From assembly GCF_006345805.1 (NCBI RefSeq), contig NC_042997.1, positions 154,938,001-155,002,000 on the forward strand: DNA of 64,000 nucleotides. The letters run 5' to 3'. Numbering within the stretch: position 1 is the stretch's first letter; each line of letters begins with the position of its first letter. Below, piece after piece: positions 1,041 through 63,145 of the stretch. The translations under genes were made by a program, and so were the position numbers. Source of the stretch: Octopus sinensis (Eukaryota). The notes beneath the pieces are model-generated. The model ran no database searches. It had not been told where the DNA came from and saw only the letters and a list, made by a program, of their open reading frames with translations.

Positions 1041-1073
<33 letters not shown>

Positions 1074-1126
1074 GAAAAAACAAGTCAAAAATAGAAAATG
1101 CTAAAATAATTTTATAGTGAACATTT

Positions 1127-1164
1127 CAGTACCGGTTTCGGTCATTTTGAGACCTTTTCAACTG
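1127..1164 (-). ncRNA. Minimal type I hammerhead ribozyme-like motif (U3-A8 core) in Penelope pLTR
   Basis: Minus strand reads CAG UUGAAAA GGUC-UCAAAAU-GACC GAAAC-CG-GUA CUG: 3-bp stem I, 4-bp stem II, palindromic stem III (ACCGGU), GUA triplet. Confidence 0.6.
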
Positions 1165-1519
1165 TAACGATTAAATAATTAAATTTAGAAAAATTAGAAG
1201 AAAAGTTTTTTTAAAGGAATATTTCTATAGTAGTGTTCAGATATAAGTGGCATTCTGCCTTTCTCTGACTCCCTTGTTTGCACTTGTGTGTTGGAGGTCG
1301 TTGTGAGTTCTTGGTAGGGTAGTAGAGGAAGAAGGCTGATGAGGAAAGGGGGTGGGAAAATCTGGGAGTGCCCTGATGGTCGTATTTTGAATGGTCAGTG
1401 GCGGCTGGCAGTCGCAGTTCAATTCAGGAGAATATTTCTATTGAAAGGCTTGTTTATAGAATTTGCGTAGGTGTTATACTAAAAAACATTAGTGACAAAG
1501 TTAAGGTAGAAGTGGAGAA

Positions 1520-14117: not shown

Positions 14118-14594
14118 GTGTGTGTGAGTGTGGAACTCAAAAAAACCTTTTATATGTCATTTTTCTTTAACACTTTAAATGGCTTGAGCAACTTCTATCA
14201 TCGATCAGGTAAAATTATATACTTTGCACATATAATAACAAATAACGGAAGAGTAGCTGAACTTAAAATTGAGAAAGGAAACAAAATGAAAGCAGTTATG
14301 GCGTTAGAAAACATATCAAAGGCAGTACCATCATAATTAAAACAAAATCAGAGTTTTTAACACTTTAATCAAAGGCGGAGGGACAAGCCCGTGCTATTTT
14401 CAGGTCCTTCTAGATTGATGGAGACGTATCCGACTGATCTTGTTCCTAAGCATCTGTTAATCAAAGCCAGTAGGCAAATGTGGGCAGAAGGAGAATGAGT
14501 GTTCTTGGAACAAAATAAATTTTATTAAAGACGCCCAAGAACCAGGTTACGACGTTAAGCTGGAAAGACGTAACGAACGTGGAATTAGCGTCAC

Positions 14595-14687
14595 TAGCAA
14601 CCCCTTGCTGGTCAGGCCTCCGCAGACTAGTTTCAGGGTATTTGCCCCTTATCAATGCAGAGCAGCCGAACCCAGCAGGCGTCGCTA
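14595..14687 (-). ncRNA. Extended type I hammerhead ribozyme (U3-A8 core variant)
   Basis: Minus strand reads UAGCGACGCCUGCUGGGUUCGGC UG CUCUGCA UUGAUAA GGGG-CAAAUA-CCCU GAAAC-UA-GUC UGCGGAG GCCUGACCAGCAAGGGGUUGCUA. All three stems form, stem I is extended by a further ~20 bp, and the triplet is GUC. Confidence 0.8.
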
Positions 14688-14742
14688 CTGTCCGAAGAAT
14701 TATTTACCTAAATTCAGTGGAATACATCCACTGGTTTTCAAA

Positions 14743-14902
14743 AATAGAAATATTAATATTTCTAAGTCTCTCTAAAGGAGACTACGGCAGCGGTACTGGA
14801 TATTAATAGTTATCGCCATATTAGCTTGGCGATAACTATTAATATCCAGTGCCGCTGCCGTAGTCTCATTTACAGAGAATTAGAAATATTAATATTTCTA
14901 TT
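14743..14902. repeat. Near-perfect 160-bp palindrome (76-bp arms, 8-nt spacer)
   Basis: AATAGAAATATT...CTGGATATTAATAGTTATCGCCA-tattagct-TGGCGATAACTATTAATATCCAG...AATATTTCTATT. Confidence 0.92.
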
Positions 14903-19091: not shown

Positions 19092-20950
19092 AAGTCCCTA
19101 CTCCTAATGACCTCAAATTGAGACCTATAATAGCAGGTCCCGCATGCGAAACCCACCGCCTCAGTAACGTTTTAGATTCCCTCTTAAAACTATACCTCAA
19201 GCATATCAAAAGCTACATAAGGGACGACCAGGATATGCTTAATCACCTTCCTGAAACAATAAACAAAAACACCTTACTAGTATCCTTCGATGTAGTCAAC
19301 TTCTATTCCAATATCCCCCACAAATTAGGAATAGCGGCAATTCAATTCCAGCTAGAGAATTACGCCAACGAACTCCCACATCGCATCAAAAAAGAATTCG
19401 TGATAGAAGGGCTATATTTATCTTGGAGAATAACTACTTCGTCTTCAAAGACAACTTCTTTCGACAAAAATCGGTGATTGCGATAGGTACAAGAATTGTC
19501 CCCTCCTTTGCTAACCTAGTCATGGGATATCTAGAAATTAGTCTTTATCGTAAGGTACATAGAAAATAACTGGAAGAGACACCTGGGTGACTGTTTCATT
19601 CTTTGGCATGAAAGTATAGGGAGACTTAAAGAATTTCAAGCACTTATAAATGGACTTGATGTAAACATTCAATTCATGATGGAATATAGCCATCAACAAC
19701 TTCCCTTCCTCAACATTCTCATTAGGAAATCTAACACCATAATAGAAACAGATATATACTATAAGGCCACGGTCTCCAAGCAATAGCTACTGTTCAACTC
19801 ATGCCGCCCCAGACACACCATAATGAATATCCCCTTCAACCTAGCAAAAAGGATCTGTACTATAGTTTCTAATGCATGCACCAGAGACACACGACTACAC
19901 GAACTAAAGGATGCACTCATCACCAGGAACTACCCACCTTCACTAATTGACATATGCTTTCAACGTGCCCTACAACTCAACATCCACGAACTCAGACATC
20001 CCAAATTAAAGAAGGATTTTTACAGCCAAAAGCCCTACCATACATCTCCACACACAATCCTCTTAAAAATGAAGCCTTCGACACCATCCTTCAAAACATT
20101 CTCCTGCTAAAAAAGGACCACAGAATGAAATTAATCCTCCAATCACACATCATCACAAAAAGCAAGAGACAGAGCAAATCTATTAAAAGTCTCCTAACAC
20201 AAGCCCGAATACGTTCAACAGCAACACTGAAGCCGTCAGTAAAAAAATTTGGAAGACCCAACTGTGGAATATGCGTCAATTTAATTGAGCGATCAAAGTT
20301 CTCCTTCAAACAAGGACAACGTTTCACAGTGAAAAGCAGCTTCACATGTGCTTCGGAGAACCTGATATACATAGACCAAACAAAAAACAGTCTACGTCAA
20401 AGGATGGCTTTGCACAAATTCCAGATCAAAATTCCGAAAAACAGAAAAATAACATTCAGCTAACACATCGACATTTGCGCTAACAAAAATCCAAGCTTCA
20501 GAATTTTACCCCTCTATCAATTCAGGGACGATACAACCTGTAGCCAACGAATTAATAAAGAGTTGTTCTTTATCACAAAATACAGACCCCTTTTGAACGC
20601 ATCTATAGCAAATGACATATCCACCATGGCCTTAGAATAACACAAATACACACGCAAATATTAAAATCGATACATTCAAAAGAGATACACAAGAATTCAT
20701 TTAAAACAGTCCCAAGCACTGCTATAATCCACAACGATTCACTTATAGGTCACTTGACCATTTAACATCCTACTACTATCATACCACTCCCGCATTCTTT
20801 TATTATTCTTTGTCTTCTTCTCCTTCGCCTTCTTCTTCGTCATCTTCTTCCTTTCCGCCACCTCCTTCCTTACTTTACGAGTTTTAACATCTTCTAAAAC
20901 AGATGTCCTCTATAGACCAGTCAAGTGTTCCAAATGTCGCTCCAATTACA
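19092..20950 (+). mobile_element. Penelope-like retroelement (RT + GIY-YIG), 5'-truncated, with multiple frameshifts and stops
   Basis: RT motifs LRPIIAGPACETHRLSN...SYIRD...LLVSFDVVNFYSNIPH, GTRIVPSFANLVMGYLE, QLPFLNILIRK..IETDIYYKAT and NIPFNLAKRICTIVSN, followed by GIY-YIG RPNCGICVNL...FTCASENLIY...RQRMALH. Confidence 0.95.
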
Positions 20951-25762: not shown

Positions 25763-25882
25763 ATGCTTACAGCACCCAGGTTTCCCTAGCGGTCACCGAT
25801 CTAAGTACTAACTAGGCTCAACGTTGCTTAGCTTCGGTGATCGGACGAGAACCGGTGCATTCAACATCATATGGCCGTAAGC
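25763..25882 (-). pseudogene. Full-length dispersed 5S rRNA copy, probably a pseudogene
   Basis: GCTTACGGCCATATGATGTTGAATGCACCGGTTCTCGTCCGATCACCGAAGCTAAGCAACGTTGAGCCTAGTTAGTACTTAGATCGGTGACCGCTAGGGAAACCTGGGTGCTGTAAGCAT (120 nt, mollusc-type). Box C is altered (TAGATCGG vs TGGATGGG), there is no oligo-T terminator, and it is a single copy. Confidence 0.9.
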
Positions 25883-60085: not shown

Positions 60086-60515
60086 TCAGGTAACCTCTGA
60101 AGAGGAAGCTGAGTAGAACTCATTCCAGAAATTTAAGAGTCGGTTTTCATTGTTGTTACAAAATTTCCTGAAGTCCAAAAGAACTTTGTCTTGAAAGAGT
60201 TCATCTCCAGTGAATGTTGTGCGCCATCGCTTGGATAACATATGGTTCCATGACCAAAGTATAGGAAAGTTTGCTGACAATGAATTCTGTTCATGGCGTA
60301 GGTCACCACAGTGTTCAATGTAATTTACAGCAGTTTCTGACACTTGAGAGGAGGAACGAGTTGACCTTTGTTTGGTACCAAGTTTACAGAGATTGTCGAT
60401 GGTAGAGAGTATGATGAACATCCCTCCAGAACAGTGAATATACTGTTCGACTTCAATACAGTACCATGGAGATTGGCTGTCATCATTCTGCATCTTCACG
60501 CTAATGAAACCAAAT
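60086..60515 (-). CDS. DEPDC5: DEPDC5 (GATOR1 subunit, Iml1/SEA1 family), last coding exon
   Basis: Acceptor TTTCAG|ATTTGG. Encodes (R)FGFISVK...QYIHCSGGMFI...LWSWNHMLSKRWRTTFTGDELFQDKVLLDFRKFCNNNENRLLNFW...SEVT*, matching the recalled DEPDC5 C-terminus (RFGFV..[51 protein letters not shown]). Length 430 nt = 1+429, in phase with the upstream exon. Confidence 0.93.
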
Positions 60516-61312
60516 CTGAAAGTTAAATAAATAAATGAATGAAACATGATAAAATAAACACAACATGTGACTGCAGTTGCAAAACTTAGTCAGACAGAAA
60601 GAACATATGCTAACGTGTGCAATTTATGTAATTAATCCAGAAAGAGATGCAGGAGAAAAAATACAAAACAAACAGAAGTTTTATGAGAATTCAGTAAAGC
60701 AAAATAAATAACCACTAAAACGAATGGCAATTAGGAAATGGTTCAAAATGTGAATATAGATGTGATAAAAGAATTCACCTTATATCTTTTACTTGTTTCA
60801 GTCATTAGACTGTGGCCATGCTGGGGCACCGCCTTGAAGAATTTTTAGTCAAATGCCTTAATCCCAGTACTTAATTTTTTTTATTTTTTAAGTCTGGTAT
60901 TTATTCTATCGATCTCTTTTGCTGAACTGCTAAGTTACAGGAACATAAACACACCAACACACATCAAAAGAGTTATAGACTGTAGCAAATATTATGTGAT
61001 GGTAATGTATAAAGTGCAACAGATTTAATAAGACAGACTAAGTCACAATTGATAGGAAGACAGACATTATACAGGTTTTCAAGTAAAAATATTGATATAC
61101 TTAAATGCAACTGCTTCTACTAAAACACTTTTGAACCTATATATGGGATCAATAAATGGTGGAGAGAGGCCAACGAGGGTGCTTCTATAAGGCCTACTAG
61201 AAAATAACAGCTATATCTCTCACGACTCAGTCTTCAAAAAAGATTGCCAAAAGATTATGCCATATTATTTCTGGCATAAAATCTATTTTAAAACATCACC
61301 AGAGAACCTTAC

Positions 61313-62154: not shown

Positions 62155-62626
62155 CAGTGTTTCAAGCTTTTTACCCTTGTGTAACCCTTAAAATAAATTA
62201 CATATCTCAAGGAACCCTTGCACGAAAAAAATTATATACCATATCTTTCTCATATTTTTTCATCATAGTTCACGTGGTAAATATCACATGCTAGCATGGA
62301 AAACGGACGCTAAATGATGATGATGATGATGATGATGATGATGCATGTGTGTGTGCATGCTTGCGTGTGTACATACATACATTCATACATACATACATAC
62401 ATACACACATACATACATATGGTTGTTTTATTTTTTTGATAACATAATAGATTAGACAGGATGATGTCTATATTACAATACTGTAGTAATCAATAATATT
62501 TTGTGCATGTATTGTAATAGTATGATCATGAAATTAGCATTAGTTTATCTCACTCTTTCTCATGGAACCCCTAGAAGCCTTTTGCAGAACCCTAGTGTTT
62601 CAGAGAACCCCAGTTGAGAAACGCTG
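62155..62626. mobile_element. hAT MITE in a DEPDC5 intron with a nested retroelement 3' tail and microsatellite
   Basis: CAGTGTTTC...GAGAAACGCTG termini; perfect TSD CTGTAGAG (62147-62154, 62627-62634); nested CATGCTAGCATGGAAAACGGACGCTAAA(TGA)n. Confidence 0.88.
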
Positions 62627-62731
62627 CTGTAGAGATTTCATCATGTGTGGGTGTGGGTACAGTGATAAATTTTTCTGAGTGCAACTGTGCATGCTTACAT
62701 GTTGTCATATACATCAACAAATAAAGTTTAC

Positions 62732-62900
62732 CTTCGATACACCCTGACGCTAAGCATTTAATACAAGAGAGATCCATTTTTAGGGTAAATGGTCCTCTTA
62801 AAGGATCTGATTGAGGCCACTGTGGTAAAGCAAATGGATCCAGAGGTACAGGTAAGAGATGGAACCCGCCGTTCTGGGTTTTCCGAGACCACGTGTAAAT
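62732..62900 (-). CDS. DEPDC5: DEPDC5 internal coding exon (169 nt); the gene continues upstream beyond the window
   Basis: TTCTTTTCAG acceptor and AG|GTAAAC donor. Encodes IYTWSRKTQNGGFHLLPVPLDPFALPQWPQSDPLRGPFTLKMDLSCIKCLASGCIE(G), cf. DEPDC5 [47 protein letters not shown]. Confidence 0.92.
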
Positions 62901-63145
62901 CTGAAAAGAAACAAATATTTCAATGATAAATTAAACAAACCAAAATGAAAACAATACAATAGCAGAAGTGTTAGTAACCAGATCAAGGATTTATGAAGAA
63001 ATATTTTCAAAAGTGGTAGGCATTCAGAAGGGTATTCAGTTGTAGTAGGAATCAGAACAGACATTAGGGCTCAACACAGCCCTCTGACCTGTCAGATGTT
63101 GATAAAACACCCAACCGATACCAGTATGGAATATGGATGCTAAAC

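Follow-up and report, generated by a model that had tools for sequence, protein, structure and literature searches.

A truncated hammerhead repeat in Octopus sinensis and its probable origin as a non-LTR retrozyme moved by Penelope-like machinery

The hammerhead on the minus strand of the window (the whole 64-kb stretch of Octopus sinensis DNA that was analysed) most probably belongs to a truncated copy of a 361-nt non-LTR retrozyme, likely mobilised by a Penelope-like RT-endonuclease. Judged from its sequence, the repeat family falls within the definition of metazoan non-LTR retrozymes; it is a new, cephalopod-type family of a class that is itself already published. The initial annotation had proposed a candidate retrozyme at this locus. 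The ORF-less 361-nt unit, its tandem copies and its Penelope-type scars bear out that proposal, but the boundaries given were wrong and the window copy is truncated. Positions in the unit carry the prefix u, with u1 at L027:1456. The features of the locus are as follows.

14601-14818, minus strand: direct arm, u8-u233 of the 361-nt unit, 89% identical to the natural copy L027
14815-14902, plus strand: inverted arm, u-4 to u83, ending at 3' site B (alignment to the unit)
14373-14600, no strand: single-copy flank outside the element (copy, protein and fold searches)
14619-14664, minus strand: type I hammerhead with U3-A8 core and 6-bp stem I (sequence, descriptor scan, covariation)
14601-14687, minus strand: extended stem I, distal helices past the bulge (folds)
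14664-14662, minus strand: UGC, the URH triplet directly 5' of stem I (from sequence, as are all lines below)
14661-14656, minus strand: 5' strand of stem I
14655-14649, minus strand: core UUGAUAA
14648-14645 with 14638-14635, minus strand: stem II, 4 bp including one G-U
14644-14639, minus strand: loop II, CAAAUA
14634-14631, minus strand: GAAA
14631-14626, minus strand: palindrome ACUAGU (stem III)
14625, minus strand: C17 of the GUC triplet
14624-14619, minus strand: 3' strand of stem I

The ribozyme and the limits of the window copy

The window ribozyme is a genuine type I hammerhead fold, for which self-cleavage is predicted between 14625 and 14624. The core, stem II, the CAAAUA loop, the ACUAGU palindrome, the GUC triplet and the cut position are all present as the initial annotation described them. 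It is the only type I match of the descriptor on both strands of the 64 kb, and the 106 nt at 14590-14695 fold with a z of -3.45, none of 200 shuffles being equally stable. Hammerheads with U3-A8 cores are active; the SM-alpha hammerhead of Schistosoma, in which the URH bulge makes contact with loop II, has the same CAAAUA loop II and URH bulge as the octopus copy. The comparison with Rfam that had been suggested returns no hammerhead match for this ribozyme, either at the gathering score or at E <= 10. Stem III consists of 2 bp and a 2-nt loop, from which weak activity as a monomer is predicted. The long stem I that had been claimed holds for its 6 bp and UGC bulge, but its outermost 6-7 bp pair the repeat with the flank and are no feature of the family; in intact units, the long helix of stem I extends to u129-138 paired with u250-259. 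The G-U pairs of this copy, once read as a sign of selection, do not carry that meaning. In proximal stem I, U-G occurs in four of 100 family rows against UA in 79, so that the U-G of the window copy reads as decay. The evidence for selection, as read from the aligned copies, lies in differences between subfamilies.

Similarity to the family is confined to 14601-14818 and the inverted arm at 14815-14902, which replaces the GC-rich element of about 370 nt that had been placed at 14373-14740. When the genome (2.72 Gb, 13,516 contigs, about 30 of them large) is searched with 14300-14780, there are 1937 candidates, and the 40 that were scored match query positions only to 180-191, down to about 14601. 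The sole genome match of 14330-14612 is itself, while the 20-mer across the junction has one exact genome match and three unrelated matches with two mismatches. The segment 14373-14600 has a GC content of 44%, folds no better than shuffles (z -0.37 on the minus and +0.16 on the plus strand) and has neither a protein relative in the genome nor a Pfam match. Since it is single-copy, unstructured and without relatives, it is taken as host flank. Two other identities for it were rejected. As the remainder of the unit or a diverged subfamily, its alignment to u234-450 is equalled by 173 of 300 shuffles; as the start of a Penelope ORF it is ruled out by the same protein and Pfam searches. The element had also been called ORF-less, and indeed none of seven frames over it has a Pfam match.

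The junction between flank and element is bridged by contigs of two runs, X6 (14 differences over 14140-14652) and X8 (no differences over 14404-14646), and is therefore real. From another organism's DNA run, a contig tracks 14140-14600 with 27 differences and then continues with 512 letters unlike the stretch; it represents either the unoccupied site or the locus as it was before a deletion. Depth is raised at 14500-14600 by extra contigs in two DNA runs, which may be alleles or a short paralog.

The direct arm of the window copy has an 8-nt deletion near u130. The eight nucleotides are kept in all 20 family stretches displayed, of the 99 others aligned, so the deletion is private to this copy. 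The arm stops 22 nt past the predicted cut and not at 3' site A, and no target duplication is present between the flanks. The two arms are joined head-to-head through a 4-nt overlap and form a fold-back of 85 bp. Rfam reports microRNA matches to this fold-back (14743-14902), which is 91% complementary and a product of the inverted insertion, but they are spurious; any transcript of it would be double-stranded. The window copy itself carries one ribozyme rather than a tandem. That single ribozyme is weak in stem III and lacks a partner in cis, so that the copy would release no unit-length RNA and is probably dead; it is a truncated, likely inactive member of the family, and the locus itself probably has no consequence for the host. 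An intact core, the bridged junction and the 6-7 bp that pair across it would all suit a domesticated ribozyme that works as part of a host transcript and has taken the flank into its stem I. Such a role is nonetheless very improbable, given the missing partner in cis, the private deletion and U-G change, the unstructured flank and the absence of a target duplication. Contigs of a run guessed as RNA (X16, contigs only) point weakly the same way, as 148 of them fall on the multicopy part and the single-copy part is uncovered. None of the runs recorded as RNA contains the stretch, a result that is neutral as to expression.

Elsewhere in the window, the minus strand holds a 5S rRNA match (25764-25882, 98.4 bits), a fragment of a mariner-type transposase helix-turn-helix (PF17906, 29151-29711) and two exons matching the C-terminal region of DEPDC5 (60089-60589 and 62595-62930); the ribozyme shares the strand of these exons and lies about 45 kb downstream of them.

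The repeat family and its conservation

The exact 31-nt core has 62 copies in the genome, a 28-nt 3' motif has 328 and a degenerate core has 752 matches; all three numbers are lower bounds, and the control matches are zero in each case. Natural tandems place the ribozymes 361 nt (L235), 365 nt (twice in L233) and 360 nt (L234) apart, with two or three direct ribozymes at each locus, some of the cores or loops being mutated in L235 and L233. Copies and tandem arrangements, for which the initial annotation had suggested looking, are thus found, the tandems at a spacing of 360-365 nt. The unit has a GC content of 43%. Copies are mostly dispersed, mostly shorter than 1.3 units, 5'-truncated and sometimes tandem, and neither a poly(A) tail nor a simple-repeat tail forms part of them; the longest arm is 1251 nt, and four of 275 arms exceed 600 nt. 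A natural monomer folds with a z of -5.37 (0 of 100 shuffles), its long stem closing across the cut site, and one decayed copy folds no better than shuffles (z -0.71).

The conservation of the ribozyme was assessed in 100 rows, the window copy and 99 of 101 distinct 50-nt stretches, two having been dropped because they are truncated or gapped in stem I. Pairing is found in 92.9% of 1400 cells, a value reached by none of 500 shuffles and compared with 28-57% in slid controls; as the rows are related, the cells do not count as independent, and the exact core had served to select 53 of the loci. Two-sided changes occur in all six pairs of stem I, and stem II covaries as well; this is the covariation that the initial annotation had asked to see. 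The 3-8 pair is standard in 88 of the 100 rows (UA in 85), and a URH triplet precedes stem I in 88; core columns are fixed by the search pattern and hence provide no evidence in the covariation test. Loop III is palindromic, in four different sequences, in 93 of the first 100 matches listed (counted by eye). Four alternative palindromes would be expected of ribozymes that act as dimers, as described for other hammerheads (PMC4209133; PMC7229834).

The U3-A8 core is the norm of the family (135 of 151 cores), and C3 with A8, a 3-8 mismatch, is found in 11 of 151. Several related repeats have their own distinctive features. A second, younger hammerhead unit of 360 nt (L131-L136 and L234:1720-2116), with copies 91-98% alike, has two 3' ends, and several of its copies show the C3/A8 mismatch; one may speculate that such copies would regain pairing, as C-I, through A-to-I editing at A8. 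A third hammerhead repeat (L139:4513-4562) shares the CAAAUA loop, its core being the canonical C3-G8. An older subfamily (L231 reverse strand 2330-2711; L236-L255) consists of units about 350 nt long, which match the main unit at 66% and carry the loop II variant CAAUAA. It is best conserved at a 29-nt motif ending at site B, which has 210 exact degenerate matches and is a candidate recognition signal for a helper enzyme.

Insertion ends and the route of mobilisation

The anatomy of the insertions was read from 179 loci with 275 arms, after removal of 15 duplicates or unrelated fetches. While the 5' ends of the arms vary, 235 of the 275 end at one of two 3' sites, site A near u26 (126 arms) or site B near u83 (109 arms). 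The sites lie 57 nt apart, and their windows, which were set from the histogram of ends, cover 44 of the 361 unit positions. Arms are paired head-to-head in 83 cases and tail-to-tail in none. Among the 59 head-to-head pairs with both ends canonical, 55 are A/B, four A/A and none B/B, an excess of A/B with a p of 7e-13 against independent choice. AT content averages 83% in the flanks, and the DNA next to 101 of the 235 ends is (TA)n. The 29 of the 55 A/B insertions that lie in microsatellites were set aside before target duplications were sought. In the 26 others, the flanks share at least 9 nt in 19 cases, compared with 1.5% of 650 mismatched pairs; the median shared length is 11.5 nt, including a few element letters, and the duplications are about 9-14 nt long. 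These shared letters indicate that one and the same event has site A as its limit on one side and site B on the other. The second 360-nt unit likewise has two 3' ends, 183 and 222-224 nt past the cut.

Two 3' ends, head-to-head inversion, AT-rich targets and target duplications together form a signature of the Penelope-like "tail" type. In Penelope-like elements, this signature consists of a tail at one end with an inverted 5'-truncated copy (PMC8557442 = bioRxiv 2021.04.23.441226), and a Penelope protein studied in vitro uses two internal RT start sites, nicks AT-rich DNA and extends both strands (PMC11167929). A satellite or a LINE-driven SINE with a chance hammerhead, spread by DNA-level amplification or 3'-primed retrotransposition, is hardly credible as an account of this anatomy, even though tandem units occur. 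LINE machinery is also compatible with target duplications and 5' truncation. Against it stand the dispersed, short copies, which have no poly(A) or simple-repeat tail, and the two fixed internal ends in A/B pairs with their 3' ends outward, which are unlike those of a LINE or a satellite.

Two Penelope-like pieces lie in the window. On the minus strand, 1072-2586 is the 3' end of a very young, autonomous Penelope-like family, for which there are 1883 candidates, the best 40 at 99-100% identity over 265 nt. This family has a GIY-YIG domain in its ORF and a minimal hammerhead, at about 1130-1170, whose core is U3-A8 and whose stem III is palindromic; interrupted GIY-YIG frames lie upstream in the window, and a tandem copy in L231 runs into ORF1 and RT frames. 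Its insertions also have two 3' ends in (TA)n (18 and 12 of 31, with one read-through), and all three inverted pairs seen are A/B. On the plus strand, 19094-20460 is a decayed piece of a Penelope-type RT, broken by stop codons and shifts of frame; the frames in L043 and L231 are related to it. As drivers of the repeat these fragments were rejected, since all they have in common with it is 13 nt of AT-rich sequence, which does not occupy the same relative place in both. The elements that the initial annotation noted at 1075 and 19092 as those being exploited are, accordingly, neighbours of the same mechanistic type with no sequence link to the unit.

The identical end anatomy also invites the reading that an autonomous Penelope-like element, with its ORF-bearing copies outside the sample, has the unit as its pLTR, or 3' end. 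The U3-A8 cores of Schistosoma Penelope ribozymes (PMC4209133) and of the Penelope end at window 1072-1200 would fit, as would the resemblance of Xenopus retrozymes to pLTRs (bioRxiv 2026.07.22.740005). This reading is quite unlikely. In the 5' direction, copies re-enter the unit for up to 3.5 periods (L122) with no ORF, and the ribozyme is canonical and not of the minimal pLTR type. With one family's proteins as query, Penelope matches occur at six of 193 and one of 20 loci, seven of 213 in all, and none forms a pLTR junction; the nearest lies 71 nt from a unit and is a decayed mid-RT piece. No ORF with RT and GIY-YIG is joined to the repeat at any of the 213 loci, so that no autonomous Penelope-like element is seen there, and the "unusual pLTR" also offered by the initial annotation finds no support. 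The best match of the unit to the one Penelope family compared is 23 nt (E 0.35). Where copies have flanks in common, these proved to be other repeats or duplications in the 14 inspected.

The state of the template was examined in loci picked by the 3' motif irrespective of the ribozyme, in which 36 arms reach u225. Thirty-five of these pass the cut site, none of the 36 has its 5' end within 7 nt of it, and nine of 91 arms at 3'-motif loci are longer than one unit. Because arms run past the cut site, the template was continuous across the cut bond, either as a re-ligated circle or as an uncut multimer. The latter would make the family a Penelope-dependent repeat copied from uncut linear multimers, its ribozyme kept for turnover or 5' processing, and the circle step is the only point at which this differs from the preferred reading; about a third of the confidence placed in the latter rests here. 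Taken by itself, the circle-free version is rather doubtful, though far more so are the other alternatives. The lack of 5' ends at the cut site, the scarcity of loci with two direct ribozymes, as seen in the few arms above 600 nt, and the in vitro insertion of an anole element without hammerhead cleavage (PMC11167929) speak for it. Conservation and covariation of the ribozyme across units just 66-81% alike, the unit-length monomers that close their long stem across the cut site, and the circles shown for comparable units of coral, mussel and axolotl (PMC7229834) speak against it. At L091-L120 and L161-L200, 17 of 57 5' truncations fall at u240-262, the 3' foot of the long stem (p 0.005, in an interval chosen after looking, so a hint only), as if RT stalls on folded RNA.

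In the preferred reading, in which the unit is a retrozyme moved by Penelope-like machinery, tandem copies would be transcribed, and paired hammerheads would cut as dimers via the palindromic stem III and release unit-length RNA; in Xenopus, eight of nine predicted dimers failed to cleave (bioRxiv 2026.07.22.740005). A host ligase may then close the RNA into a circle, by analogy to known retrozymes (PMC7229834). A Penelope-type protein would nick AT-rich DNA on both strands, at positions about 10 nt apart; one strand would then prime cDNA at site A (u26), the other at site B (u83). The cDNAs would end early and, if both survive, be joined head-to-head. The window copy would be such an inverted insertion, its site-A end most likely lost later by deletion. 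A more specific version, which we hold only tentatively, is that one Penelope-type dimer on one ribozyme-made circle primes both nicked strands at two fixed sites 57 nt apart. If true, this coupled priming would link the retrozyme class to Penelope by mechanism and not by co-occurrence, and a coupled two-site reaction would account for the tail that Penelope insertions have on one side and for their inverted ends. In the published in vitro Penelope assay, the strands showed no difference in start site (PMC11167929); the near-obligate A/B pairing provides a sharp prediction for that assay.

Relation to known systems

In the literature searched, no description was found of a cephalopod hammerhead or retrozyme, or of tail-type retrozyme ends, although supplements, subscription papers, Repbase and Dfam may hold one. 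The words "ribozyme" and "retrozyme" do not occur in the main text of a 2026 paper on Octopus vulgaris repeats (PMC13282606), nor do "octopus", "cephalopod" and "squid" in PMC7761336. The helper machinery of retrozymes was left open in 2020 (PMC7229834), their repeats show no motif pointing to a helper in the account of PMC7761336, and in 2026 the helper was approached in Xenopus through co-occurrence and pLTR homology (bioRxiv 2026.07.22.740005). Like the class itself, the hypothesis of a Penelope helper is therefore already in print (PMC7229834; PMC7761336; bioRxiv 2026.07.22.740005). In the octopus family, the insertion scars themselves point to Penelope-like elements as the movers. The family also adds a cephalopod-type hammerhead, with U3-A8 as its normal core, that is missed by Rfam.

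Metazoan non-LTR retrozymes have been described from Acropora, from Mytilus (350-390 bp) and from axolotl (330/350 bp) (Cervera and de la Pena 2020, PMC7229834). The octopus family resembles them in its ORF-less unit within the 150-450 bp range, its GC content below 50% (here 43%), its canonical type I hammerhead, tandem copies, long target duplications (>4 bp) and self-paired monomer, and in the co-occurrence of Penelope-like elements. It differs in its U3-A8 norm and in having copies that, in this sample, are mostly dispersed, truncated and inverted and not in long arrays; the two fixed 3' ends in A/B pairs are likewise a feature of the octopus family that does not appear in the account of those retrozymes consulted (PMC7229834). 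With SM-alpha of Schistosoma mansoni and newt satellite 2 it shares the type I fold with an internal loop in stem I (PMC6155905), and with newt and axolotl a weak palindromic stem III needing dimers (PMC7229834). SM-alpha has C3-G8 in place of U3-A8; the comparison covers the ribozyme.

The non-autonomous Penelope-type repeats of Chlamys (such as MRC1) also have pLTRs and head-to-tail copies (PMC8557442). The Chlamys elements, mostly without hammerheads, resemble their autonomous partners at the 3' end, whereas here no such similarity was found to the one Penelope family compared. From Penelope-like elements proper, the octopus family differs in having no ORF and a canonical rather than a minimal ribozyme, and its tail of 57 nt (about 40 nt in the second family) compares with 30-40 bp in those elements. 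It shares with them 5' truncation, partial tandems, an inverted 5'-truncated partner, a tail at one end and AT-rich targets (PMC8557442; PMC11167929), as well as the type I hammerhead, of which the U3-A8 variant is known there too (PMC4209133).
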